Source: Veillonella dispar (GTDB lineage: Bacteria > Bacillota > Negativicutes > Veillonellales > Veillonellaceae). From it: a stretch of DNA of 40,000 nucleotides. The position numbers and the translations under genes were made by a program. The stretch spans positions 601,952 through 641,951 of the forward strand of contig NZ_LR134375.1 of NCBI RefSeq assembly GCF_900637515.1. Reading direction: 5' to 3'. Positions 1,144 to 31,155 of the stretch are shown here, piece by piece; the stretch's first letter is position 1; the number at the start of each line of letters is the position of its first letter. The notes under the pieces are model-generated. The model searched no databases, was not told the origin of the DNA, and saw only the letters and a list, made by a program, of their open reading frames with translations.

Positions 1144-3558
1144 ATGGATACTACTATCATCATAGCTACGGGCAGAAGTCGCTCCGCCCGTAGCTGGAAG
1201 TCTCAGAAGATGACTTGGAGTGCTTTGGTCAGTAAATTGGCTGAACCAACTGTAACGAACGAAACGGCTGCTGAATACGCCAAGATGTCTAAAGCTGATC
1301 AGGGGCAAAAGAAAGACGTTGGCGGTTTTGTAGGTGGCTATATTCCTAAAAATGGTAGACGGATTAGAGTGGCTGTTAAAGAGAGATACTTAATCACTCT
1401 TGATGCGGATAACCCTGGCGAAGATTTCATCGTAGACCTAGATATGGAATTAGGCGGTATGGAATATGTACTGTATAGTACACACAGCCACACAGCTGAC
1501 AATCCTCGCTACCGCGTGATTATCCCCGTGGATAGACCGATGACACCGGATGAGTATCAAGCAGTCTCGAGACGGATTGCTGATAACATCGGCATTGAGT
1601 TCTTTGACCCATCCACGCACCAGGCTGAACGGCTTATGTATTGGCCAAGCCATCCTAAGGACGTCGAGTATGTATACCAACATAGCGAAGGCTCACTTGT
1701 TTCAGTAGATACCTATTTGAGTACCTACAGAGATTGGCGAGATACAAGCCTTTGGCCAACATCGGAGAAGGAATCACAAATTCGCCTTGATGCGGCTAAG
1801 AAGCAAGGCAACCCTTTAGAGAAAAAGGGCCTTATCGGTGCTTTTTGTCGATGCTACAGTATCACGGAAGCTATCCATAAGTTTCTCCCTGAAGTCTATG
1901 AACCTACAGCTGTAGAAGACCGGTACACATATGTAGCCGGTAGCTCGGTAGGTGGTTTAGTTATTTACGATAACGATACTTTTGCTTACTCCAACCATGC
2001 AACTGACCCAATCAGCGGTAAGCTCGTCAATGCGTTTGACCTTGTCCGGATCCACTTATTCGGAGATAAGGACCCAGCCGATGAGACCAGCGTCACTAAA
2101 CTTCCAAGCTACAGGGACATGATTGACTTTGTGAACGAAGACGGCGCTGCGCCAATCCTGCTCGATAAGGAACGTATGGCCGATATGGAGTTCGAGGACA
2201 TCACAGACGATGACGAGGACTTTTTATCAAAGCTTAAACGTGATAAAAACGGTACCCCTGAATCTGATGTGTACAACTGCTTAGTCGTCCTTAAGCAAGA
2301 CCCAGCGCTCAAAGGTAAAATCCGTCTCGATGAATTTGCGCACCGCTTAGTCGTGATTGACGACCTTCCTTGGCGTGGTAAGGACGAAACCCCTTACTGG
2401 ACGGATACTGACGATGCATGCTTACGTAACTACTTCGCTACGAAATACCTCATCAAGGGTAAAGGCATCATCGACGATGCGCTCCAGGAAGTCACGCAAG
2501 ATAATAAGTTCCACCCTGTGCGTGAGTATCTAAAGGGGCTAACTTGGGACGGCGAATGTAGACTAGATACTCTCTTCATCGATTATATCGGTGCGGAGGA
2601 TACGGAATACATTCGCGCGGTTACCCGTAAATGGATGTGTGGCGCGGTAGCTCGTGTTATGGATCCAGGCGTTAAGTTTGATACGGCGATTGTGTTGTAT
2701 GGTTCTCAAGGTCTTGGTAAATCCTTAATCCTAGAACGCTTAGGCCGTAAATGGTTTAATAACTCACTCGTTGACATCAAAACCAAAGATGCCCTAGAAC
2801 AAATTCAAGGCTCTTGGATAGTCGAACTTGCCGAACTGGCACCTACCTACAAGAACGATAATGAAATCGTTAAAGCCTTTATCAGTCGTACCTCTGACCG
2901 GTTCCGTTCTCCATATGGGAGACGCACCGAAGAGTACCCTCGCCAGTGTGTGTTCGCTGGTTCTACTAATAATCTTATGTTCCTTAAAGACCGTACCGGT
3001 AACCGCCGATTTTGGCCAATTACTGGCGATAAGGACCGGAAGACAAAGCACTCCTGGGACTTGTCAAAAGATGAAATTGACCAATTATGGGCAGAAGCGT
3101 TCGTGTATTGGTCTGAAGGTGAGCCTTTGGTATTGGAAGGAGCACTTGAAGAGGAAGCCCTTAGAATTCAATTATCGCACACTGAAGGCGGTGAACTAGT
3201 AGGACTCATTGAGGAATACCTCGAAATGCTACTACCTGAAGACTGGGAAACAATGGATATCTACGACAGACGAGATTACGTTGCTAATTATGGCGATGAC
3301 GATCATTGCGGTTCAGTGCAGCGGGAACGAGTGTGTGCCCTTGAGATATGGTGTGAAGTGCTTGGCGGGGACAGGAAGAACCTGCAGAACGCAAAGGCTA
3401 GAGAGATTATTGACATCTTACAATCAACGCCAGGCTGGAACCCATATACAAAAGGGACAGGAAAAGCACGTTTTGGCAGGCTTTACGGTCCACAGAGAGC
3501 GTTTATAAAGGAAGGTGCAGACCTCCTATCAATGTATAAACAAAATCAAGGTAAGTAG
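1144..3558 (+). CDS. Replication protein: primase-polymerase-like N-terminal region fused to a VirE/VapE-family P-loop NTPase
   Basis: ATG 1144 follows RBS GGGAGGAG (1127-1134) and the upstream stop, so I prefer it to the tracked 1102 start. Walker A is GSQGLGKS, Walker B-like is WIVELAEL, and GSTN...DRTGNRRFWPI is typical of the VirE family. It sits directly upstream of the iteron cluster. Confidence 0.8.
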   Translation: MDTTIIIATGRSRSARSWKSQKMTWSALVSKLAEPTVTNETAAEYAKMSKADQGQKKDVGGFVGGYIPKNGRRIRVAVKERYLITLDADNPGEDFIVDLDMELGGMEYVLYSTHSHTADNPRYRVIIPVDRPMTPDEYQAVSRRIADNIGIEFFDPSTHQAERLMYWPSHPKDVEYVYQHSEGSLVSVDTYLSTYRDWRDTSLWPTSEKESQIRLDAAKKQGNPLEKKGLIGAFCRCYSITEAIHKFLPEVYEPTAVEDRYTYVAGSSVGGLVIYDNDTFAYSNHATDPISGKLVNAFDLVRIHLFGDKDPADETSVTKLPSYRDMIDFVNEDGAAPILLDKERMADMEFEDITDDDEDFLSKLKRDKNGTPESDVYNCLVVLKQDPALKGKIRLDEFAHRLVVIDDLPWRGKDETPYWTDTDDACLRNYFATKYLIKGKGIIDDALQEVTQDNKFHPVREYLKGLTWDGECRLDTLFIDYIGAEDTEYIRAVTRKWMCGAVARVMDPGVKFDTAIVLYGSQGLGKSLILERLGRKWFNNSLVDIKTKDALEQIQGSWIVELAELAPTYKNDNEIVKAFISRTSDRFRSPYGRRTEEYPRQCVFAGSTNNLMFLKDRTGNRRFWPITGDKDRKTKHSWDLSKDEIDQLWAEAFVYWSEGEPLVLEGALEEEALRIQLSHTEGGELVGLIEEYLEMLLPEDWETMDIYDRRDYVANYGDDDHCGSVQRERVCALEIWCEVLGGDRKNLQNAKAREIIDILQSTPGWNPYTKGTGKARFGRLYGPQRAFIKEGADLLSMYKQNQGK

Positions 3559-3943
3559 GTGTGTCCAATTATTTGAGGTGTGTCCAATTATTTAATAGGT
3601 ATGAATGTTCGTAAAAATAAATATTCAGGCCTATACATCGATTAATTTTGATATAGTGCAATAATTGGACACACTAGACACGCTTGGACACACTAATTGG
3701 ACACGGGCAAAAAGCGGATAACTGCTAAACTAAATAGTAAAGTGTGTCCAGTGTGTCCAATTATTTATATAAAAATAAAAAAATAAATATATGAATAATT
3801 GGGTGTATATATATAAGCGTAAAAAACGCAAATACGCGTATATATATATGTTGGAAGAAAATTGGACACTTCGGACACACCCCCCCCATAAATCCAGTAA
3901 CGGCGCGGGTTCATAGGCGTGTCCGAGGGTGTGTCCAATTATT
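3558..3943. repeat. Iteron cluster with AT-rich centre: putative phage replication origin
   Basis: There are eleven GTGTCC-core repeats. Direct copies: 3558-3574, 3577-3593, 3742-3750, 3751-3766, 3917-3924, 3928-3943. Inverted copies: 3660-3674, 3684-3693, 3694-3704, 3861-3869, 3872-3880. Five carry the full GTGTGTCCAATTATT. They flank a strongly AT-rich stretch (~3767-3850) and a C8 run (3880-3887). Confidence 0.65.
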
Positions 3944-3964
3944 AAATGAGAACGAGGTGAGAAC

Positions 3965-4297
3965 GTGGAAAAAGACATCGAGCGATGGTTAGGAAATCAA
4001 CTCAAAAAAATGGGGTGCATATATATGAAATTCGTGTCACCTGGAAATGATGGGGTCCCGGATCGGATTATTGTACTTCCCGGAGGCGGTGTTATATTCG
4101 TCGAGTTAAAGGATACAAACGGAAAGCTAATGGCTAACCAACGAGTACAGATTTCACGATTACGAAAGCAGGGCGCTTTGGTGTTTGTGGTAACCGGGAT
4201 GCCTGATGCCAAGTTATTTGTTGAAGATATGGAAAGGGCGATACATGGACTTTCATCCACACGAGTACCAAAGCATTGCAATACAACGAATCATTGA
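3965..4297 (+). CDS. VRR-NUC domain nuclease
   Basis: GTG start follows GAGGTGA. GVPDRIIVLPGGGVIFVELKDTNGKLMANQ fits the PD-(D/E)xK core of VRR-NUC proteins. The usual pairing with an SNF2 helicase gene is present. Confidence 0.7.
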   Translation: MEKDIERWLGNQLKKMGCIYMKFVSPGNDGVPDRIIVLPGGGVIFVELKDTNGKLMANQRVQISRLRKQGALVFVVTGMPDAKLFVEDMERAIHGLSSTRVPKHCNTTNH

Positions 4298-5612
4298 CAA
4301 TACCCATTACGGCTTGTTATTGGATATGGGGTTAGGTAAAACCATATCTACACTCATTGCGATTGAACGGCTTATGTATGACTACTTTGATATTAAAAAA
4401 GTATTACTCATCGCACCTAAGAAGGTAGCAGAGTCTACATGGGCCCAAGAAACGCAAAAATGGAGTGCAACAAGACGTTTAATGGTGGCTAAGGTGTTAG
4501 GTTCCGAAAAGGAACGTATACAGGCCTTAGAGAGTGAATCTGACGTTTATGTGATAAATCGTGAAAACGTGCAGTGGCTATATGAGTACTATCGTAAGAA
4601 AAAATCGTTCCCTTTCGATATGTTAGTCATCGATGAGAGTTCTTCGTTTAAGAACCCGCAGGCAAAACGGTTTAAGGCGATTCGTAAACTTCGACCATTG
4701 TTTAAGCGTATCGTCATTTTAACAGGTACACCGGCACCTAATACCTTACTTGATATTTGGGCGCAAATGTACCTCTTAGATGGCGGTGAACGATTAGGTA
4801 AGACGATTACTGAATATCGTACCCGGTATTTTACACCGGACAAAACCAACGGGCATGTCGTGTACAGTTACCGATTACAGCCAGGTGGAGACAAAGCGAT
4901 ATTCAGCAAGATGCAGGATATCTGCATGAGCTTAAAAGCGAAGGACTATCTTACACTACCTGAACGTATCGAGAATGTCATCACAGTAGAGATGAACCCT
5001 AAAGAATGGGAACTCTATAAACAGATGGAACGTGAGCACGTGCTTAGCTTAGCCAGTGATGACGACGTAAGTGCACTTAATGCAGCAGCACTCGCTGGTA
5101 AATTGTTACAACTAGCGAATGGATCCATTTATAACGATGATGGTGAAATCGTAGTTGTCCATAACGAGAAGATTGAACGCTTGAAAGAATTGGTAGAAAC
5201 GAATGAAGGAAAACCGATGTTAGTGTTCTACAACTTCAAGCATGACCTTCAATCTATCAAAGAAGCGTTCCCGAAAGCCGTCGAGCTTAAGACCGATGAT
5301 GATGTAGCGAAGTGGAACAAGGGCAACATTCAAATGTTACTGGCGCATCCCGCATCAGCAGGGTACGGCTTAAATCTGCAAGCCGGCGGTAATATCATTG
5401 TATGGTATGGACTAACGTGGAGCCTTGAACAGTATCAACAGGCGAACGCACGACTTCATAGACAGGGGCAAACACAACCCGTGATTATCCACCATTTAGT
5501 CACTAAGGGCACGATGGACGAGCAAGTCATGAAAGCGTTAGAACGCAAAGAAGCGGGGCAAGATGCCCTCTTAGAAGCTATTAAATATCGTAAGGAATTG
5601 TATAAGGAGTAG
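4245..5612 (+). CDS. SNF2/DEAD-like family helicase
   Basis: Motif I is LDMGLGKT, motif II is VIDESSSF, motif III is LTGTPAPN and motif VI is RLHRQGQTQPV. ATG 4245 (MDFHPHEYQ) is preferred to 4206, but the start is uncertain. Confidence 0.85.
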   Translation: MDFHPHEYQSIAIQRIIDNTHYGLLLDMGLGKTISTLIAIERLMYDYFDIKKVLLIAPKKVAESTWAQETQKWSATRRLMVAKVLGSEKERIQALESESDVYVINRENVQWLYEYYRKKKSFPFDMLVIDESSSFKNPQAKRFKAIRKLRPLFKRIVILTGTPAPNTLLDIWAQMYLLDGGERLGKTITEYRTRYFTPDKTNGHVVYSYRLQPGGDKAIFSKMQDICMSLKAKDYLTLPERIENVITVEMNPKEWELYKQMEREHVLSLASDDDVSALNAAALAGKLLQLANGSIYNDDGEIVVVHNEKIERLKELVETNEGKPMLVFYNFKHDLQSIKEAFPKAVELKTDDDVAKWNKGNIQMLLAHPASAGYGLNLQAGGNIIVWYGLTWSLEQYQQANARLHRQGQTQPVIIHHLVTKGTMDEQVMKALERKEAGQDALLEAIKYRKELYKE

Positions 5613-22339: not shown

Positions 22340-23411
22340 GCATATGACGGCCAATCGAATTGAAAAACGAATGCTCGATAGAGTTAAAGATGAATTCGAT
22401 CGGCGCGAAGGTAGTGTTATATACGATGCTACAGCTCCGGCAAGCGTTGAGTTTGCAGAACTATATATCCTAGCCGATGTGATTCTGAAACAAGCGTTTG
22501 CAACGACCGCAGACCGGGAATTCCTAATACTTCGTGCTGCGGAGTTTAATATTTACCCGGAACCTGCAACGCAAGGCGAATTTGAAGCTCAGTTCAATAT
22601 GGAAGTACCGATTGGCTCCAGGTTTAATTACAATGAATACAACTTTGTTGTAACAGAGGTAATCGACGACGCGGAACATAAGTACAAACTTAAATGCGAA
22701 CAGTACGGACGCACTCCTAATGCGACCACAGGTGATATTACGCCAATCCAAGGTATTAATGGCCTTACCTCTGCTAAGATATTGAAGAATATCACGCCTG
22801 GCGAAGATGAAGAAGACACAGAAGTATTCCGAAAACGGTACTTTGATGCTTTGAAATCAAAAGCCTATGGCGGTAATGGTGCGGATTACAAGGAAAAGGT
22901 ATTAGCTATCCCTGGCGTTGGCGGTGTTAAAGTATACCGCTGTTGGAATGGCGGTGGTACCGTTAAGCTAGTTGTATTGAATAGCGACTACAAGCCTGCA
23001 GCAGATGAACTGATTAAGGAAGTAGAGAACGTTATAGACCCAGCGCCAAAAGGCAAAGGGTACGGGCTTGCTCCTATCGGCCACACCGTAACAATCGAAA
23101 AGGCTGACCCGGTAACGATCAACTACCGAATTGAAGTCACCATGATGAGCGGGCACAACGTCAATGAAATCCAAACTCTTGCCGAGAACGCTATCAAGCA
23201 ACGACTACTTCTCCGCGCTAAGGAATGGTGTAATCAAGACGAGAAGGAACATGTTATTCTTCGGACTAGTCTTGTAACGGCTTTAATGGTTGAGCTTCCT
23301 AGTGTTCTTGACGTAGGTAGGATTACTATAAACGGTGCTTCTGTTTCAAAACTCGAATTGAAGGATAATCAAATCCCAGTAGTAGGGACGATTACTTTGG
23401 TGGCAGTATGA
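22332..23411 (+). CDS. Baseplate J-like protein (XkdT-like)
   Basis: 359 aa, called on synteny. The start is TTG 22332 (after GGGGTGA) or ATG 22344. Confidence 0.7.
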   Translation: MYEHMTANRIEKRMLDRVKDEFDRREGSVIYDATAPASVEFAELYILADVILKQAFATTADREFLILRAAEFNIYPEPATQGEFEAQFNMEVPIGSRFNYNEYNFVVTEVIDDAEHKYKLKCEQYGRTPNATTGDITPIQGINGLTSAKILKNITPGEDEEDTEVFRKRYFDALKSKAYGGNGADYKEKVLAIPGVGGVKVYRCWNGGGTVKLVVLNSDYKPAADELIKEVENVIDPAPKGKGYGLAPIGHTVTIEKADPVTINYRIEVTMMSGHNVNEIQTLAENAIKQRLLLRAKEWCNQDEKEHVILRTSLVTALMVELPSVLDVGRITINGASVSKLELKDNQIPVVGTITLVAV

Positions 23412-24040
23412 TTACAGACTTTGGGATTTTTAAACGGGATATTGATATCTCACAATTCGCCGTTCCGTTAACTCGAGATTCTCGGGATATCCAAGAAGTC
23501 TATCGAGTAGAATCTGCAGAACTACAACTGCTATGGGATATCATGCTAGATATCTTTAAAGAAGAATACATCTATACTGCAGCAGATTACGGGCTTGAAG
23601 CATGGGAACAAATATTAGGCATCAATCCTCCGGATTTGACAGACACAGAAGGACGCAGAAGTGAAATACTATCAGTATTAATCGGACAGCGTCCTTTTAC
23701 TATGCCAAAAGTGCAAGAAATGCTTAACTTCAAGTTTGGCAATCATGTAGTAAAGCACTCTGTTGTATCTGATAGATACGAGTACTGGCTAGATGTAGTC
23801 GATGGATTTGAATCACAGCTCAACAATATTGTCGATTATGTGGAGCCGTTAATACCTAAGAACTTAATCATCAAGACAAAAAGTACTACAAACATTAACG
23901 GCGAAATATATGTAGGCGCTATATCTGATGTATACGAGTCCTTCCATGTCGGAGCGGCATTAGATAAGTTTGATTTCAAAGTAGGCTCTGACATTAACAT
24001 AGGCATGAGCTTCGACGTATTAGAAACAATTAAAGTATAA
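23408..24040 (+). CDS. XkdU-like tail protein (DUF2313-like, gpI-like)
   Basis: Follows baseplate J with an overlapping stop. Called on size and synteny. Confidence 0.5.
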   Translation: MITDFGIFKRDIDISQFAVPLTRDSRDIQEVYRVESAELQLLWDIMLDIFKEEYIYTAADYGLEAWEQILGINPPDLTDTEGRRSEILSVLIGQRPFTMPKVQEMLNFKFGNHVVKHSVVSDRYEYWLDVVDGFESQLNNIVDYVEPLIPKNLIIKTKSTTNINGEIYVGAISDVYESFHVGAALDKFDFKVGSDINIGMSFDVLETIKV

Positions 24041-24049
24041 GGAGAACAC

Positions 24050-24955
24050 ATGGCTTCTATTTATCCAAATACACGATTAACCAATTATGGCCGTGAGTTA
24101 ATCGCAAGATCGCAAGCAACCGGCAAGAAGTTGCAATACATTAAGCTAGTTACTGGTGACGGTCAGCTTGATAATCAAAATATCGATACTATGACCTCTG
24201 TACTAGCCCCAAAATTAGAGTGCCCGTTCACTTCGGGCGGTGAATTCGTAGGCGACGGCCAATTTAGAATCGAATTTGCGGTTAGTAACAGCACAGTGAA
24301 TAGCGGGTTCTTCGCTAGAGAGTTAGGCGTATATGCTAACCTTGAGGGTGAATCTGATTCCGCTGCTAAACTAATTGCATATAGCAACGGCGGAAACTAT
24401 GCTTCCTATATTCCGTCTAAGGAAACACCGATTAATTCTAAAGTGTTTTCTTTAGATGTAGTAATCGGTAACTCTACGAATGTAACAGTTAAGAAGATTG
24501 ATGCGGCATACCTCACACGAGGGGCATTAGATTCTCATAACCGTGATACAAGCGCACACTCAAATATCACAGACCAAATTAAGGCGATTCTCGGAAGTGC
24601 GAACTGGAACGACTCCCCGGCCAGTACACTTGTTACAATTAAAAACTTATTAGGACAAGGCGCTATCGTGGCATCTAAGCTCGACGCTAATGCGGGGTTT
24701 GTAAAGTTCGCTAATGGTTTCACTATCCAGTGGGGAATAGGAGGGCAGGATAACGTGACCAAAAGTGAAGTAAGATTCCCAATCAAATTCACAACGCTAT
24801 TTATGGCCAACGCTATTGATGCATACTGGTCAGGTTCTGACACGCCTAGGTATTTCGCTAACTCCGTGTCGGAGAGCAACTCCACTAAAGCCGTATTTTC
24901 GGCAAGCGATAGATACGCTGCTTCTTATTACTGGTTTGCTCTAGGGATTATCTAG
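24050..24955 (+). CDS. Tail fibre protein: tail-collar-type N-terminus plus currently expressed C-terminal tip A
   Basis: AAGGAG RBS. The N-terminus TNYGRELIARSQATGKKLQYIKLVTGDGQ resembles the Mu S / P2 H tail-collar fibre domain. The variable tip starts after IQW (codons 226-228). Confidence 0.8.
   Translation: MASIYPNTRLTNYGRELIARSQATGKKLQYIKLVTGDGQLDNQNIDTMTSVLAPKLECPFTSGGEFVGDGQFRIEFAVSNSTVNSGFFARELGVYANLEGESDSAAKLIAYSNGGNYASYIPSKETPINSKVFSLDVVIGNSTNVTVKKIDAAYLTRGALDSHNRDTSAHSNITDQIKAILGSANWNDSPASTLVTIKNLLGQGAIVASKLDANAGFVKFANGFTIQWGIGGQDNVTKSEVRFPIKFTTLFMANAIDAYWSGSDTPRYFANSVSESNSTKAVFSASDRYAASYYWFALGII
24727..24734 (+). repeat. Putative recombination core A (CCAGTGGG) inside the fibre gene
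   Basis: Identical 8-mer in the same reading phase (cCAG TGG g = Gln-Trp) as cores B and C. Confidence 0.6.
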
Positions 24956-25185
24956 TTACCTATGATAATGAACATAATCTGATCACCAACGCCTTGCTGT
25001 CCTCTATAGTCACTATCCTTATATGTTAGCTGATTTCTAGAAGTCGATAAAATGATTTCAGAAAATGAATAATCACCGTTATATCTTGCGGTAGAAACGG
25101 CGATAGTCTTGTTACTGAACTCTACCGGGTAGCGCACAGTCCAAGGCTTAGGTTGATTATAGGCGTTAAATAATACCCACTGGAT
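24952..25185 (-). other. Silent tail-fibre C-terminal cassette C (no own start or RBS)
   Basis: The minus-strand frame is open from 25185 to the TAG (complement of 24952-24954). It reads IQWVLFNAYNQPKPWTVRYPVEFSNKTIAVSTARYNGDYSFSEIILSTSRNQLTYKDSDYRGQQGVGDQIMFIIIGN, paralogous in length and pattern to tip A. Confidence 0.7.
25176..25183 (-). repeat. Putative recombination core C (CCAGTGGG on minus strand)
   Basis: The plus strand reads CCCACTGG. The core is in frame with Gln-Trp at the head of cassette C. Confidence 0.6.
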
Positions 25186-25186
25186 A

Positions 25187-25429
25187 TTAATTCTTCCCTA
25201 CGGCCATCCAAACAAAACTACCTGTGTCCGCTCTGTCGGTTAAGAATCGGATGGTGTTTCTATTAGCTTGAGAGAACCCACTGTTCCAAGTAATAAAACA
25301 TTTTGCGCCGGAAGTATCAACACTAACAGAGTCATCGGTGGCTAATGCAATTAGCACAGTGCTGCTAATCGGTAGCGAAACATCTTTATAGTATCTATTA
25401 GAATCAAACCAAGTTATCCCCCACTGGGG
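25187..25429 (-). other. Silent tail-fibre C-terminal cassette B (no own start or RBS)
   Basis: The minus-strand frame runs from 25429 to the TAA (complement of 25187-25189). It reads PQWGITWFDSNRYYKDVSLPISSTVLIALATDDSVSVDTSGAKCFITWNSGFSQANRNTIRFLTDRADTGSFVWMAVGKN, paralogous to tips A and C. Confidence 0.7.
25420..25427 (-). repeat. Putative recombination core B (CCAGTGGG on minus strand)
   Basis: The plus strand reads CCCACTGG. It lies 4 nt from the recombinase stop codon and is in frame with Gln-Trp at the head of cassette B. Confidence 0.6.
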
Positions 25430-25431
25430 AG

Positions 25432-26277
25432 TTACTTTAATAATTCTATGGACTTGCGTAGCTCACGAATGGTCTTATGTGTGTATACCCTAGTAGTGAT
25501 ATCACCTTGTTTATGGCCTAGCAAGGAGCGTAATGCGTTAGGTGGCGCTACCGCATCAAGTAGACTTGCAAATGTGTGCCGGGTATCGTGGATAGTATGC
25601 TTGCAGTTAAGCTGTTTCATAATATTATGGAAATGCTTACGGAACGTTGTATAGCTGATAGTGAATAGGTAATCGCTAGTATGTAGTTGCTCTATTATAG
25701 GCATGATGCGGTGATGAATGGGAATGATACGACCTTCACCGGCTTTAGTTTTGGCGTGTCTTACGATAAGGTATGATGATCGTCTATTGATATCTTGCCT
25801 ACGTAAGTTAAGGAGCTCACCTATGCGTAGTCCGGTGTAGAGCAGTATTAAAATCATGCGGGAATAAGATGTATCTATTGCCCATAATTTGTTGATTTGT
25901 TGGCGAGTGAATACTCTTCTCTTAATCGTCGGTCTATTGGGCCCTAGATTTAGGTGCAGGGCGTAATTAGTGACAGAGTAATCTCTAATGATTGCGTAAT
26001 TGAATAATTGATTAAGTAATGTACGGACTTTCTTACAAGATGAGTAGGAAAGTCCTTTTACGCGCATGGAATCAATCACATTTTGAAGGTGCTGAAAATG
26101 AATATCCGTGATAGACATATCCGCTATGTTGGATATGTGTTTAAAAGCAATGTGATAAGACTTAACAGCGCTATTAGAAATAGTCTGAGAGTGAATAGGC
26201 AACCACTCGTTAAATAGTTGCCTTAATGTAATGGTATTGCGTTGTCTACGTTTTAGTATAACTGCGTAACGGCGCAT
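25432..26277 (-). CDS. Tyrosine site-specific recombinase (candidate fibre-tip invertase)
   Basis: GGAGGTG RBS. Catalytic residues occur in order: R (TGLRIGEL), K (HAKTKAGEG), HxxR (HDTRHTFAS), H (LLGHK), Y (TRVYTH). It is the only clearly coding minus-strand gene in the phage part of the window. Confidence 0.85.
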   Translation of the reverse strand: MRRYAVILKRRQRNTITLRQLFNEWLPIHSQTISNSAVKSYHIAFKHISNIADMSITDIHFQHLQNVIDSMRVKGLSYSSCKKVRTLLNQLFNYAIIRDYSVTNYALHLNLGPNRPTIKRRVFTRQQINKLWAIDTSYSRMILILLYTGLRIGELLNLRRQDINRRSSYLIVRHAKTKAGEGRIIPIHHRIMPIIEQLHTSDYLFTISYTTFRKHFHNIMKQLNCKHTIHDTRHTFASLLDAVAPPNALRSLLGHKQGDITTRVYTHKTIRELRKSIELLK

Positions 26278-26303
26278 AATTTCACCTCCGAAAGGATACT
26301 ACT

Positions 26304-26696
26304 ATGAATCAATATGTATTTGTATTGAACGAAATGGGCGAACGAATTACGTCCTATGTTGATAATACAGTAACGCAAGAGCAGTTGTTAGCAACTGCAA
26401 AACAAGAATGGCCAGATGCAAAGGATTATATTTACTCTACAGACGGCGATAGTATGCTAGATGAATTTATGAAAGGTAAATTCTATGTAAACGGCAAGTT
26501 TGTCGAACCTGCTCCGTATGTTCCTACCAAGGAGGATAAGATTAATGCGATTAAATCTGAATACGAGCCGCGCTTCAAATCCTTAGAAGAGGCTCAGCGC
26601 AGATTGTTATTAATGGGAAAACCTACTGGGGCCATTAGTGCACAATATATCAAATTAAATACCGAAATGGTAACACGTATTAAGGAGGTACAATAA
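26304..26696 (+). CDS. Hypothetical protein (possible fibre assembly/chaperone role by position)
   Basis: 130-aa ORF with an AAAGGA RBS. No recognisable motif. The functional guess rests on position only. Confidence 0.35.
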   Translation: MNQYVFVLNEMGERITSYVDNTVTQEQLLATAKQEWPDAKDYIYSTDGDSMLDEFMKGKFYVNGKFVEPAPYVPTKEDKINAIKSEYEPRFKSLEEAQRRLLLMGKPTGAISAQYIKLNTEMVTRIKEVQ

Positions 26697-26697
26697 T

Positions 26698-26862
26698 ATG
26701 CCTAAATATATCGGAGAAAGTAAAGTACCTGTTATGGAATTTTGTGAGTACTGCTGGGAAGTGCTTAACGAAGACGGAACATGCCCAACAGAGGGCTGTG
26801 TCCATAATGATTTAATGGACGAGGTACACGAAGATGAAACTACCAGTCCTACACAACTTTAA
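26698..26862 (+). CDS. Small zinc-ribbon-like protein (54 aa, absent from the ORF track)
   Basis: ATG 26698 lies 9 nt after AAGGAGG and 2 nt after the upstream stop. It translates to [54 protein letters not shown], with CxxC ... CxxxxC. TAA at 26860-26862. Confidence 0.5.
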   Translation: MPKYIGESKVPVMEFCEYCWEVLNEDGTCPTEGCVHNDLMDEVHEDETTSPTQL

Positions 26863-27172
26863 TGCAATTAAAGGGGAAGTGATTTCTCTTAGCATTGGTT
26901 ATAACAATGTTGTTGCAAGTGAAAGTTTGTTCGCCTGTGTTCGTAAATATTCTCCGGACGAAGAATATAAAGCTAAGTTCGATATTGACGTGTCTACCGA
27001 CGAGCTAGAAAACGATGAAGCATCTAAAATCACTCTTTCGTTGGATACAAATGCCCTAGCAGTCGGTAAATACCAATGGGACTTATTTATTTGGAATGGC
27101 GACCACCCTATCAAATGTCTAGTTAAAGGACAAATTACTATAGTCGAAGGCGTTAGCAATAGGGGGAAATGA
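26834..27172 (+). CDS. Hypothetical protein (small beta-rich, fibre-associated by position)
   Basis: 112-aa ORF. Its stop overlaps the start of the collagen-like gene. Confidence 0.4.
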
Positions 27173-28488
27173 TGGACGAACTACACATTCACGAAAATAA
27201 CGAAACGATCAAAGTTAAAGACAATACTCAAATCGTTAAACTGCAAGGACCGAAAGGAGACCCTGGGCCACAGGGCCCTCCTGGTCCTCCAGGTCCACAG
27301 GGTGAACCTGGTCGAAATGGTATTGACGGAATAAACGGAGAACAAGGGATACAGGGCATTCAAGGCCCGCCTGGTATTCAAGGACCTCCTGGTAAAGATG
27401 GTCTTAAAGGTGAACCCGGAACTCCTGGACAACGTGGAGCGGATGGCGAACGAGGGCCACAGGGGCCACCTGGACCGAAAGGCGAACCGTTTAAGTTCTC
27501 TGACTTCACACAGGAGCAACTTAATGCACTTAAAGGACCGAAAGGTGATAAGGGCGAACAAGGACCTCCCGGTCCTCCTGGTACTGGTGGCACAGGTGGA
27601 GCAGACTTGTCGGATTATACTAAGAAAGCTGACGCCGAAAATCTTTATCTTAAGAAAGTAGACCTAAGAGCTTATCTTACTATGCTCGGTGACCCTAAAT
27701 ATGCACTTAAAACAGAGTTAAATAATTATTTATCTAACACAGATGCGGCTAATAATTATGCTCAAAAAGGCTGGGCAACTCAAACGTTTGCATATAAAGG
27801 TGATTTAGGTGTCTATATTAAGAAATCCGAAATCGGTCAATATGCATTAACACCTGGTGATGCTTCTAGTCGTTACGTCAATAAATTAGAGGGGCAGTCC
27901 TTCGCTCAAAAATCTGAATTAAGTGATTATGTTAAGAAAACTGAAATTAATCAGTATACATCAAGTACACAAGGGCCGCCAGGGCCTAAAGGAGAGCCGT
28001 TCAAATATTCTGACTTCACGCAAGACCAACTTAATGCACTTAAAGGGCCAAAGGGTGATAAAGGCGAGCCGTTCAAGTATTCTGATTTTACGGCGGAACA
28101 ATTACTAGCATTAAGAGGGCCTAAAGGAGCCCCTGGGAGCGGTGGGGGACAAGTAACTTCACAACCAGTCGAAATATATGAAGTTGTTTGGGGTAATGCT
28201 ATAGCCAGTAACCCTGGTGCTGATAGAGGTTACTTAGCGTTTGACCCCTTAACTGGTTGGGGATACTTACATTTTGATTTTAAATTGAAAACCCCTTCTG
28301 GTAATGGCAATATGGTAGCATCGCTTCCACCAAATGCGCCAGTTGCAGTAAGGCTAATTGAAAGAAGCGTTGATGCAAGTAACAATAGCATTTATGTTGA
28401 ACGAAATAGCCGTATAATTAAGGGTTGGGGTGTACCGGCGAACATGCGGTATATTATTGATATTATTGGTTATTGGAGAAAGGTGTAA
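27169..28488 (+). CDS. Collagen-like repeat tail fibre / receptor-binding protein
   Basis: 27 uninterrupted Gly-X-Y triplets (about 27247-27489). Three copies of the EPFK(F/Y)SDFT..QL.AL(K/R)GPKG module. Fibre-type D/E-L-S-x-Y-x-K-K repeats. A ~110-aa non-repetitive C-terminal domain. Confidence 0.75.
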
Positions 28489-28491
28489 TAG

Positions 28492-28821
28492 ATGTGGACT
28501 TGGCAATTTGAATTGAATGACATCTTAACCACTCTTACGATTGTAGGTGTGGTTGCAGGTGCAGGATATAGATTATTGATTATTCCGTTGTTACAACAAT
28601 TAGACTCACAACGGATGCAAGATAATCTTATCTTTCAAGAAAAATGGGGTGTATTAACTGATACACTAAAAGATTTGAAAGATGAAATTAAATTATCACG
28701 TGCAGAGCGAATAAAAGCTGAGAGCAAGCAAGTATTACTATCTGCAAAAGTTGAAGCATTAGAAGTACGTGTTGAGGATATTAAGGATGAACTTCATGAA
28801 CATACCTCAAAAGCTCATTAA
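28492..28821 (+). CDS. Membrane-anchored coiled-coil protein of the lysis cassette (XhlA-position analogue)
   Basis: N-terminal TM segment LTTLTIVGVVAGAGYRLLIIPLL followed by a charged coiled coil. Located immediately upstream of the holin and amidase genes. Confidence 0.45.
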   Translation: MWTWQFELNDILTTLTIVGVVAGAGYRLLIIPLLQQLDSQRMQDNLIFQEKWGVLTDTLKDLKDEIKLSRAERIKAESKQVLLSAKVEALEVRVEDIKDELHEHTSKAH

Positions 28822-29128
28822 TTCAATTAAACAATCTTATAAATCTGTGAGGGTGGCTAACATCCACCCAACAGGTATTTTAGCTACTCGGGCGCTAGTG
28901 TTTATTATGCTAGTGCCTATTTTATTGGTGGTCACTCAATATGTTATGTCCTTTATTAGTGGGTACGTGTCAGACGAAGCGAATAAGCTGATTAATGTAG
29001 GCATCAATATTATTGACCACATATTCATACCTAGTGTCTTAACAGCCATTGTAGGCTTCTTAGGGCTTTGGGTAGACCAAAATAATAATGGTATTCCCGA
29101 TAGATTAGAAGAGGAGGATAAACGATGA
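28787..29128 (+). CDS. Holin (two TM segments, charged C-terminus)
   Basis: TM1 is ALVFIMLVPILLVVTQYVMSF and TM2 is IFIPSVLTAIVGFLGLWV, with the tail RLEEEDKR. The stop overlaps the amidase ATG (ATGA). Possible starts are ATG 28787 and ATG 28796. Confidence 0.65.
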   Translation: MNFMNIPQKLINSIKQSYKSVRVANIHPTGILATRALVFIMLVPILLVVTQYVMSFISGYVSDEANKLINVGINIIDHIFIPSVLTAIVGFLGLWVDQNNNGIPDRLEEEDKR

Positions 29129-29643
29129 AAGTATTTATTAATCCTGGCCACGATATCAACTTAGATAGTGGCGCAGTTAATCCTGTATATGGAACACGCG
29201 AATGTGACGTGGCACGTGATGCGGGCAAGATGTTAGCGTGTTACTTGGAAACAGCTGGATGCGATGTGCGCACCCTACAAGATGATGATTTAGGGCTTGT
29301 ATGTTCCGAAGCTAATTCTTGGGGCGCAGATATCTTCGTATCGCTTCATTGTAATGCGTTTAACACAGAAGCCCGTGGCACTGAGACTTTGTATAAGTCT
29401 TTTAACGGGCAACGATTAGCAAACGACATTCAAAGTCAAATAATCCGCAGCATTAATACGGTAGACCGTGGAGTTAAGAAACGTGATGACCTTTGGGTGC
29501 TAAATGGTACGGACGCAACTGCTGTATTAGTTGAAATGGCGTTCATTGATAATGAAGAAGATCATACTATGCTGACTAATGATTTAGATACTATCGTTCG
29601 TGCCATTGCTAGGGGGATTACTGACTACGCAGGAGGAATATAA
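29125..29643 (+). CDS. N-acetylmuramoyl-L-alanine amidase endolysin (Amidase_3)
   Basis: MKVFINPGHD..DSGAV, E in the RECD region, and SLHCNAF are typical of the CwlA-type zinc amidase. Confidence 0.85.
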   Translation: MKVFINPGHDINLDSGAVNPVYGTRECDVARDAGKMLACYLETAGCDVRTLQDDDLGLVCSEANSWGADIFVSLHCNAFNTEARGTETLYKSFNGQRLANDIQSQIIRSINTVDRGVKKRDDLWVLNGTDATAVLVEMAFIDNEEDHTMLTNDLDTIVRAIARGITDYAGGI

Positions 29644-30128
29644 TGTATGACAAAATCAAAGTTTTACTTAATAGCCTTAGTTACCGCCATGCTGTTATCG
29701 GTGGTATTGTGCTCCTCTCCATCTTTTGCCTCTGGTATATCTTCCACGAGCCAAGCGGAGCCAACCATAACGATTCCCTTAACACAGTGGAACGAATTGA
29801 AAGCCAACAACGAGAAAGCATTAAGCTTAATAGAGACATCCAGTCTGCCATTGACCGAGGCACAGTCCTTAGTCATGAAGCAAAGGGAAGAATTGAACGA
29901 AGCACACAATACAATCTCGACATTGGAAACCGAATTAGTGAAAGCCAAAATGCTATCCATGAAGCAAGAAGTTACCTTATCAGAAATGCAGAACTCATTG
30001 ACCGAATTGAAAGGGCAAATCAACAACGACAAACGAACTATCAAGCGACTACGGACGCAACGCAACCTATCTCAGATGGTGGGAGCGGGAGCAATAATCG
30101 GAGTAGTGATTCATCGGTAAAGAGGTGA
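29643..30128 (+). CDS. i-spanin-like protein (N-terminal TM plus coiled coil)
   Basis: The ATG overlaps the amidase stop. TM segment AVIGGIVLLSIFCLWYIF followed by Arg/Glu/Gln-rich helical sequence. Last gene of the lysis cassette. Confidence 0.5.
   Translation: MYDKIKVLLNSLSYRHAVIGGIVLLSIFCLWYIFHEPSGANHNDSLNTVERIESQQRESIKLNRDIQSAIDRGTVLSHEAKGRIERSTQYNLDIGNRISESQNAIHEARSYLIRNAELIDRIERANQQRQTNYQATTDATQPISDGGSGSNNRSSDSSVKR
29647..30120 (+). CDS. Fully overlapping +1-frame ORF: signal/lipoprotein-like N-terminus, coiled coil, C-terminal hydrophobic tail (o-/u-spanin-like?)
   Basis: It shares the AGGAGGA RBS (29631-29637). MTKSKFYLIALVTAMLLSVVLCSSPSFASG looks like a signal peptide. A heptad-like middle follows, then the C-terminal MVGAGAIIGVVIH. 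Which frame or frames are translated is unresolved. Confidence 0.35.
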   Translation: MTKSKFYLIALVTAMLLSVVLCSSPSFASGISSTSQAEPTITIPLTQWNELKANNEKALSLIETSSLPLTEAQSLVMKQREELNEAHNTISTLETELVKAKMLSMKQEVTLSEMQNSLTELKGQINNDKRTIKRLRTQRNLSQMVGAGAIIGVVIHR

Positions 30129-30170
30129 TCCAAATATCTCCCTAGCCCTGCGAGGGTGGACGTAAGGCAA

Positions 30171-30204
30171 GCCCCAGGTAAATAGTACCTGGGGCTTTTT
30201 TTTT
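30171..30204 (+). terminator. Intrinsic terminator ending the late/lysis operon
   Basis: GCCCCAGGT aaatagt ACCTGGGGC followed by T9. Confidence 0.8.
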
Positions 30205-30323
30205 ATTTGACATCATTTTGACATCATTTTATTAAAAAATATATAGAAATATAGTTAAATGTGATACTATGAAATGCAGTAAAATACTGTGTTTATAGAA
30301 TTTGTCATTACCTATATAATTAA

Positions 30324-30368
30324 CTCTTAATCAGGGTGTCCAGGGTTCGAACCCCTGGTGGTCCACCA
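30324..30368 (+). tRNA. tRNA 3'-half remnant (anticodon loop CTCTTAA = CUU Lys-like, T-arm, acceptor, CCA); not an intact gene; probable attR
   Basis: Anticodon loop CTCTTAA, stem half TCAGG, variable GTGTC, T-arm CAGGG TTCGAAC CCCTG, acceptor 3' strand GTGGTCC, then A and CCA. No matching 5' acceptor strand (GGACCAC), D-arm or anticodon-stem partner lies upstream. Confidence 0.6.
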
Positions 30369-30373
30369 AAATA

Positions 30374-30399
30374 ACCCGCACAGTAGTGCGGGTTTTCTT
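30374..30399 (+). terminator. Intrinsic terminator after the tRNA remnant
   Basis: ACCCGCA cagtag TGCGGGT followed by TTTTCTT. Confidence 0.6.
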
Positions 30400-30414
30400 A
30401 TTATTGTCTTTAGA

Positions 30415-31155
30415 CTGGTTCGCGACGTAGTCGCGAATCATAAAACCACCCGCTATGCGGGTGCGGCAACGAAAGTTATACAAAAAAATCACCTTGCTTA
30501 AGTATAATGTAGGTGTTCAAGCCGCATTATATACAAAAGAAAGGTGATTTTATATGGCAACAAAGACACAGAGCCTTGCGCACACAAAATGGTTATGCAA
30601 ATACCACATAGTATTTACACCTAAGTATAGACGTAAAGTTATATATAATCAATACAGAAATAGTTTACGTGAAATATTGAGACGTTTATGTGAATATAAG
30701 GGCGTCAAGATTATAGAGGGGGAGCTTATGGCTGATCATGTGCATATGCTAGTATTAATCCCGCCTAAAATATCAGTATCATCTTTTATGGGATACTTAA
30801 AAGGGAAAAGTGCACTAATGATGTTCGATAAACACGCAAACTTAAAGTATAAATTTGGAAATAGACACTTTTGGTCCGAGGGTTATTATGTTAGTACAGT
30901 AGGTTTAAATGAGGCTACAGTAAAGAAATATATACGTGAGCAAGAGTTACATGACCAAATGAAAGATAAACTTAGTGTAAAAGAATATGAGGACCCTTTT
31001 AAGGGTAGCAAGTAATACACATCCCCTTTAAGGGGAACGTTACGAGTCAATGGCTATGCGGCTTGAACGTAGTGAAAGCCAGCGCCTTTAGACGCTGGCC
31101 TAGTACTACGGGCTTATAGCCCGTGAGCAAACCACCCGTTTTACGGGTGGTTCTG
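30415..31155 (+). mobile_element. IS200/IS605-family insertion sequence (tnpA only); ends approximate
   Basis: A Y1 transposase gene flanked by subterminal hairpins at 30419-30437 and 30447-30463 (left) and 31078-31099, 31108-31124 and 31130-31152 (right). The CCACCCG...CGGGTGG hairpins at the two ends are similar. Confidence 0.6.
30554..31015 (+). CDS. tnpA: IS200/IS605 family Y1 (HUH) transposase TnpA
   Basis: 153 aa. LAHTKWLCKYHIVFTPKYRRK, HUH motif HVHMLV, and the catalytic-Tyr region SEGYYVSTVG. Confidence 0.9.
   Translation: MATKTQSLAHTKWLCKYHIVFTPKYRRKVIYNQYRNSLREILRRLCEYKGVKIIEGELMADHVHMLVLIPPKISVSSFMGYLKGKSALMMFDKHANLKYKFGNRHFWSEGYYVSTVGLNEATVKKYIREQELHDQMKDKLSVKEYEDPFKGSK

Follow-up and report, generated by a model that had tools for sequence, protein, structure and literature searches.

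A small tyrosine recombinase in a Veillonella prophage as the probable invertase of a three-site tail-fibre shufflon

What is the function of a small tyrosine recombinase whose gene lies inside a prophage, antisense to the late operon, between a tail-fibre gene and the lysis genes? We addressed this question in the window analysed here, a stretch of 40,000 nucleotides to which all positions refer and which contains the right-hand ~30 kb of a Veillonella prophage and, beyond them, chromosomal DNA. The late genes all lie on the plus strand and include the small terminase subunit (7183), the portal, a PBSX/Mu-like baseplate (YQBQ, Baseplate_J, Mu gp48-like) and the fibre gene. Baseplate_J, the Mu gp48-like gene and the fibre gene precede the recombinase locus; collagen-like fibre, XhlA-like, holin-like, amidase and spanin-like ORFs lie beyond it, the last ending at 30128, and from 30554 onwards the DNA is chromosomal (IS200 TnpA, Dyp peroxidase, threonine synthase, GlnRS). 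These domain and PHROG matches of the neighbours bear out the position given in the preliminary description, which placed the recombinase between the fibre gene and the collagen-like fibre and lysis genes. It had also called the recombinase the only convincing minus-strand gene of the phage region, and indeed the only other minus-strand ORFs that fill gaps in the plus-strand gene chain between 1 and 30300 are two promoterless fibre cassettes; the lysogeny module of complete relatives, likewise on the minus strand, is located outside the window. The recombinase locus itself comprises three features.

25432–26277, minus strand: tyrosine recombinase of 281 aa, armless, the putative fibre invertase (ATG start, domain matches, catalytic residues)
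26278–26303, between the two genes: head-to-head spacer of 26 nt with back-to-back Shine-Dalgarno motifs, GGAGG for the recombinase and AAAGGA for the plus-strand gene
26304–26696, plus strand: g130, the conserved divergent partner gene (PHROG 32639 match)

The 281-aa protein matches the Phage_integrase domain (Pfam PF00589, E=1.6e-19), and its residues 17–106 match SAM-like core-binding domains (PF14659, PF13102). The full R-K-HxxR-H-Y set reported earlier for this ORF could be located as R151 (TGLRIGE), K176/K178 (HAKTKAG), H230 and R233 (HDTRHTF), H255 (LLGH) and Y265 (RVYTH); in alignment A2 the K176, H230, R233, H255 and Y265 columns are invariant and R151 is nearly so. The protein thus has both the catalytic residues and the core-binding domain of the tyrosine site-specific recombinase superfamily. 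The gene is real, as more than 1000 homologues are on record, with a top identity of 94% and with Veillonella sp. or V. parvula as the named sources.

The recombinase gene ends with the stop codon at 25432–25434 and starts at 26275–26277, 26 nt from the divergent ATG of g130 (26304–26306), as had been described. This spacer is ~100% conserved in 79 loci, and the equivalent junctions of more distant relatives measure 26–61 nt. Homologues of g130 with 30–42% identity adjoin the recombinase in loci L249–L255 and L258, so that g130 is its constant neighbour in all lineages examined; the two may have a functional connection, with g130 acting, for instance, as fibre chaperone or accessory factor. 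The best-conserved stretch of the locus among 74–79 relatives, with variable flanks, is 26001–26320, which reaches from the 5' third of the recombinase gene through the spacer to nt 17 of g130; this conservation could reflect embedded promoters or regulation, or the boundary of a mosaic module. A candidate uniquely ultra-conserved block at 26191–26320 was dropped, as conservation proved patchier and the whole 5' third of the recombinase gene is kept.

Further downstream, the collagen-like fibre protein (27169–28488) has G-X-Y tracts and a GEPFK(F/Y)SDFT.EQL.AL.GPKG unit that is present in three repeats, and homologues of it follow the recombinase in L250. After the amidase gene, two plus-strand ORFs of 161 and 157 aa (29643–30128 and 29647–30120) overlap almost totally in different frames, one with an N-terminal membrane helix and the other with a signal or lipobox-like N-terminus. 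They look like an embedded spanin pair of near-equal length, and the same pair is found at L167 12764–13253.

The fibre gene and the DNA separating it from the recombinase contain the candidate substrates of the enzyme.

24050–24955, plus strand: tail-fibre gene, 301 aa (PHROG 7037 tail fibre; Pfam Gp53-like_C at aa 219–299)
24727–24734, plus strand: core 1 (CCAGTGGG), in frame in the fibre gene as I-Q-W-G
24952–25188, minus strand: silent cassette A, an alternative 78-aa fibre tip, promoterless, reading N-I-Q-W-V... from core 2 in a frame open to the stop
25176–25183, minus strand: core 2, inverted relative to core 1, preceding silent cassette A
25187–25435, minus strand: silent cassette B, an alternative 82-aa fibre tip, promoterless, reading V-T-P-Q-W-G-I... 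from core 3 in a frame open to the stop
25420–25427, minus strand: core 3, inverted, 4 nt past the recombinase stop, the fixed end of the shufflon, preceding cassette B

The constant part of the fibre gene consists of codons 1–224 (24050–24721) and is conserved among related loci, and the expressed tip, S0, which begins at 24722, is variable. Exactly three copies of the 8-mer core occur in the 40 kb, and all of them are the core sites listed above. Cassette A gives a weak Gp53-like_C match. The resident tip and cassettes A and B have only Q-W and a few other residues in common, a low likeness that is expected for alternative receptor-binding tips. Two further candidates, a degenerate core-like sequence inside the recombinase gene (26201–26211) and a direct repeat, D1, were judged to be probable chance occurrences.

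This arrangement suggests a simple mechanism. Recombination of core 1 with the inverted core at 25176–25183 or at 25420–25427 would invert the DNA between the cores and replace the last ~75 fibre codons by cassette A or B, and the reading frame would be held through the encoded Q-W motif. The outcome would be three alternative receptor-binding tips, which presumably change the host range.

We compared the window with 80 related IMG/VR loci (Veillonella phage contigs) whose recombinases are 88–96% identical to the window protein. BLAST of window segments recovered four cassette orders among close relatives, namely S0+SA+SB+ (the window order), SA-S0-SB+, SB-SA-S0- and SB-S0+SA+, which, as read from the contigs, are those expected from inversion. 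Cassette A is joined to the fibre constant part in five loci (L052, L067, L069, L072, L073) and cassette B in six (L068 and L075–L079). In a four-site lineage, with left flanks named a–d and right flanks 1–4, the pairings are a1 b2 c3 d4 (L071), a2 b1 c3 d4 (L067), a4 c3 b2 d1 (L068), a3 b1 c2 d4 (L077) and a4 c2 b1 d3 (L072), with all breakpoints exactly at the core; the flanks of the core are also reassorted in L075. The core is invariant over all loci (75 in the flank comparison), in which 30 left flanks combine with 57 right flanks, and the flank that carries the recombinase stop codon (the left flank of core 3, with the last recombinase codons) pairs with at least 12 different right flanks. 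Nearly all loci have a plus-strand core in the fibre gene and a minus-strand core right after the recombinase stop, with two to four cores in total.

Of the 80 contigs, ~15 terminate at a core. L038 is a palindromic contig, centred on the region, that carries two facing recombinase copies across the cassettes (1258–4559), most likely an assembly artefact arising from the inverted sites. Contig ends at cores and a chimera of this kind are typically seen when a sample contains mixed orientations, of which they are indirect evidence here.

If the 281-aa protein acts on the fibre, integration should be the task of another enzyme, and the preliminary description had placed the true integrase beyond the left edge of the window. 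Using loci that match the left-most window gene and the repressor of the relatives, we reached the left ends of related prophages. There, ~10.7 kb left of window position 267, a lysogeny module contains cro-like, cI-like and ImmA-like genes and a 357-aa integrase, which has 22% identity to the 281-aa protein and ~36 extra N-terminal residues (GRYQVSKMINGKRKYFYG...). The right prophage end within the window shows the matching attachment site.

30208–30229, plus strand: two tandem TGACATCATTT repeats, proposed P-arm sites of the arm-bearing integrase (the same repeats lie between integrase gene and core in L176, L161, L246 and L248)
30323–30368, plus strand: attR core, the 3' 46 nt of tRNA-Lys(CTT) from anticodon loop to CCA (identical to the 3' part of the intact tRNA-Lys in L246 and L248)

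A tRNA remnant at 30324–30368, ~4 kb from the recombinase, had been named as the apparent prophage end; it does mark attR, with its start corrected by 1 nt to 30323. The same 46-nt segment is present in contigs in the attP form, where the integrase stop is followed by TGACATCATTT-type repeats, three in number, then by a terminator hairpin and the 3' segment of the tRNA, and finally by the right end of the phage with two more repeats, so that arm-type repeats flank the att site of the 357-aa integrase on both sides. The attL counterpart was found in two Veillonella MAGs (L246, L248), in which the integrase adjoins an intact tRNA-Lys(CTT), and this second integrase beside an intact tRNA is what the preliminary description had suggested looking for. 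ARAGORN found no tRNA adjoining the integrase in the IMG/VR contigs, because these are in attP form; the intact copy was seen only in the two MAG loci. Within the window, ARAGORN found no tRNA and an Rfam search gave no matches. In four contigs (L186, L188, L201, L216), the genes of the integrase and of the 281-aa recombinase occur together, separated by ~3.7 kb that include attP. As the relatives are 97–99% identical to the window in its left-most gene and share its att core, we infer that the window prophage has the same integrase of its own.

The surroundings of the att site vary among these phages. The terminator hairpin by the att core (30373–30394) has its loop in either orientation, cagtag or ctactg, when compared with L176 9334–9351 and L161 9328–9345, and L246 has a third loop sequence. 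L167 contains tandem prophages, in which the integrase and att junction are followed by the lysis module of another phage (9544–14375). Phages across L161–L240 that are otherwise alike differ by the exchange of two integrase alleles (at least 95% and ~56% identical) and of left-end modules that have no relation to one another. On the chromosomal side, the IS200-like Y1 transposase gene (30554–31015) lies directly right of attR, with hairpins ahead of it at 30447–30463.

We then placed the 281-aa protein among tyrosine recombinases. NCBIfam gave sub-threshold Xer and integron matches only (XerA 75 bits with a cut-off of 220, XerD 62 with a cut-off of 330), with no FimB/FimE, Bacteroides Tsr or PsrA invertase model among the matches at E<=0.01, and PHROGs assigned the protein to phrog_1, 'integrase'. 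A megablast search of 23000–30400 against cultured phages gave no match. In tblastn, the closest cultured-phage relatives were arm-bearing integrases of Fusobacterium, Butyrivibrio and Ruminococcus gnavus phages (phrog_1), 27–35% identical over the core-binding and catalytic domains; all are canonical integrases of 341–421 aa and, unlike the window protein, have an additional N-terminal domain and are encoded between lysis and lysogeny modules, next to att. The nearest clusters in a library of 1.84 billion protein representatives show 32–49% identity and are mostly 325–370 aa long, and residue ~14 of the query aligns with their residue ~65. Only 13 residues precede the core-binding domain in the 281-aa protein, as opposed to 50–65 more in the homologous integrases, and alignment A2 shows that this extra N-terminus (xPNGYGSIxKLSGxRRRPY...GYF.T..EA) is common to bona fide integrases; that of P0143 gives a weak Arm-DNA-bind_4 match. 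By these comparisons, the 281-aa protein is devoid of an arm-binding domain and groups with integrases rather than with Xer or Fim. Its earlier characterization as a core-only recombinase of Xer- or Fim-like size therefore stands for the missing arm-binding domain, but the nearest relatives are arm-bearing phage integrases and not Xer, Fim or Bacteroides invertases.

The genomic context of these relatives is informative. Six of them (P0122, P0123, P0124, P0125, P0126 and P0128; 42–49% identity) occupy the same position: they follow the baseplate and fibre genes, run antisense, face a g130 homologue head-to-head and lie ahead of the lysis genes. The locus of P0122 (L251) has the same CCAGTGGGG core in inverted copies. 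The conservation of this fibre and lysis context over such deep divergence, down to 42–49% identity, supports the invertase role. Against it count P0130, a bona fide integrase among the nearest relatives at 43% identity, and the phage integrases at 27–35%; the gene of P0130 adjoins a repressor, as does that of P0143 (35%). A domain of ~60 aa at the N-terminus, homologous to the arm-binding domain of true integrases, is kept in P0122, P0125, P0126, P0128 and P0134 (L251, L252, L254, L255, L258), P0123 retains a remnant of it together with an internal deletion that removes the Arg-I region, and P0124 is fully armless like the window protein. Since several fibre-associated relatives keep the N-terminal domain, size is not diagnostic, and small size as a mark of the invertase role was dropped in view of relatives of 324–365 aa in the same fibre context.

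The full domain (P0122, P0125, P0126, P0128, P0134), the degenerate form (P0123) and the armless form (window protein, P0124) all occur at fibre shufflons, and in the closer clade all recombinases are head-to-head with g130 and antisense to the late operon. It is possible, and we propose it tentatively, that the fibre-associated recombinases are a lineage off arm-bearing phage integrases in which the steps from integrase to invertase are preserved. If the arm domain or the antisense layout sets the timing or direction of inversion, for example by confining it to the lysogen, these proteins would form a natural series for the gain and loss of directionality control.

Altogether, we put the probability at roughly 0.85 that the 281-aa protein is the dedicated invertase of a three-site tail-fibre shufflon, and that a different, 357-aa integrase at the far left prophage end acts on the tRNA-Lys(CTT) att site with its arm-type repeats for integration and excision. 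The dedicated invertase proposed at the outset is well supported, on comparative grounds, by the sites, the in-frame cassettes, the reassortment at the core and the conserved context. The role of the protein as catalyst of the inversions is suggested by adjacency and co-occurrence. One point counts against this explanation: the three sites share only ~8–10 bp, by which the recombinase-binding arms are not delimited.

That the 281-aa recombinase is instead the prophage integrase, or integrase and invertase in one, acting at the tRNA-Lys att site 4 kb away, we consider extremely improbable. Its closest sequence relatives do include canonical integrases, and its distances of ~4 kb from attR and ~3.7 kb from attP in the circular form might seem compatible with such a role. 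However, relatives have the distinct 357-aa integrase right beside attP or attL, including cases in which one contig contains both genes; arm-type repeats flank the att core on either side and the 281-aa protein has no N-terminal domain; and the fibre core CCAGTGGG is absent from the att region. Neither the lack of another integrase nor an att core like the fibre cores, which the preliminary description had named as counter-evidence, is therefore what the relatives show. Thus, of the features expected of a lambda-type integrase, the 281-aa protein has neither the N-terminal domain nor the position next to att, from which it is separated by the lysis genes. It is also very improbable that the gene is the decaying remnant of an integrase, with inversions that date far back or are the work of another enzyme acting in trans. 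The loss of the N-terminal domain, which homologues have, and the Arg-I deletion of P0123 would fit such decay, but the ORF is intact, with all catalytic residues, in more than 1000 homologues at 88–96% identity. Moreover, switching appears to be ongoing, because contigs break at the sites and closely related loci differ in cassette order alone.

A separate issue is how a dedicated fibre invertase in this position would be controlled. The preliminary description suggested that late transcription reads antisense through the recombinase gene and silences it during lytic growth, so that switching would take place in the lysogen alone and all phages of one burst would have the same tip. The end of the late and lysis transcription unit is marked by one feature.

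30169–30197, plus strand: strong intrinsic terminator (12-pair stem and T-run)

Terminator prediction gave nothing convincing between the fibre stop codon (24955) and 30169, and the 26-nt spacer has no room for a promoter, so that the late genes beyond it need either read-through or a promoter inside the recombinase gene; late transcription running antisense through the recombinase gene is thus plausible. The head-to-head antisense layout with g130, kept in six lineages at 42–49% identity, and the position of the best-conserved part of the locus in the 5' third of the recombinase gene and the spacer are also consistent with antisense control. On the other hand, promoter prediction gave no significant candidate on either strand: in scans for promoters and terminators around the recombinase, matches were no commoner than in shuffled sequence, and by eye there was no convincing sigma-70 promoter for either divergent gene. 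In the P0134 lineage (38% identity, fibre-associated, with the QWG motif and cassettes), the recombinase is co-directional with the g130 homologue and the late and lysis genes on two independent contigs (L258 5001–6098 and L259 613–1710), and antisense placement is therefore no general requirement. In phage Mu, slow Gin inversion leads to near-clonal bursts without antisense control, and slow inversion would by itself suffice here. We thus regard silencing of the invertase by late antisense transcription as rather unlikely. As an aside, the fibre tip of L258 is interrupted by a run of Ns, a hint that the shufflon was difficult to assemble.

Few phages have been characterized from Veillonella, an abundant commensal of the mouth and gut, and the prophage family described here is very common in human metagenomes, with more than 1000 near-identical recombinase homologues and many contigs of ~40 kb. 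With a working fibre shufflon, one lysogen could release phages with up to three to four receptor specificities. This would affect the prediction of host range as well as metagenome assembly, in which contigs break at the sites. Annotation is affected too, as databases call the recombinase gene an 'integrase' and take it to mark prophage boundaries. The family would also represent a compact inversion system, in which the enzyme has 281 aa and the core 8 bp.

Shufflons of this type have been described before in Bifidobacterium phages, and the Veillonella prophage probably has another. Prophages of Bifidobacterium breve and B. longum contain the Rin shufflon, in which Rv cassettes are flanked by an armless XerD-like tyrosine invertase; it also has a constant Rc gene and rix sites of 11 bp, and the integrase is separate. 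Rin was presented by its authors as the first tyrosine-family invertase encoded by a phage (Mavrich et al. 2018, PMC6109161). The Rin shufflon has since been noted in Eggerthella lenta prophages (PMC8778435), and programmed inversions of phage tail genes are a recognised class (PMC9881135). We found no published report of such a shufflon in Veillonella. As in Rin, an armless phage tyrosine recombinase flanks one end of an array of promoterless cassettes for receptor-binding C-termini, with the constant N-terminal fibre gene at the other end; a short asymmetric crossover site, to which the inversions map, is repeated before each cassette; relatives show multiple orientations; and a separate canonical integrase lies elsewhere in the prophage, here seen in relatives. 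The system differs from Rin in its host, Veillonella (Negativicutes), in the PBSX/Mu-like contractile-tail baseplate of its tail module, in its core, CCAGTGGG as opposed to the 11-bp rix TTCCCTAACCC, and in its 2–4 sites compared with ~5 cassettes; in addition, several relatives keep an integrase-type N-terminal domain. No Bifidobacterium phages were among the tblastn matches to cultured phages at E<=1e-8, and it is by its architecture that the Rin shufflon is the closest precedent.

The comparison extends to older inversion systems. In the shufflon of the IncI1 plasmid R64, the gene of the Rci tyrosine recombinase lies beside the array, and multiple inversions swap the C-terminal segments of the PilV adhesin. 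Unlike the system in the window, it is plasmid-borne and acts on a pilus, Rci has ~384 aa with a C-terminal extension and the sfx sites are 19 bp long; the likeness of the 281-aa protein to Rci is not significant past the general tyrosine-recombinase family. Switching of fibre tips by site-specific inversion beside an invertase gene is shared with the Gin/G segment of phage Mu, Cin of P1 and Min of p15B, and the likeness to Mu includes the gene order of baseplate J (gp47), a gp48-like gene, the fibre constant part, the invertible tips (G segment) and the invertase (gin). Gin, Cin and Min are serine recombinases that need an enhancer and Fis, whereas the window enzyme is a tyrosine recombinase. 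By this analogy, the window recombinase would be a non-homologous replacement of the Gin-type enzymes with the same function.
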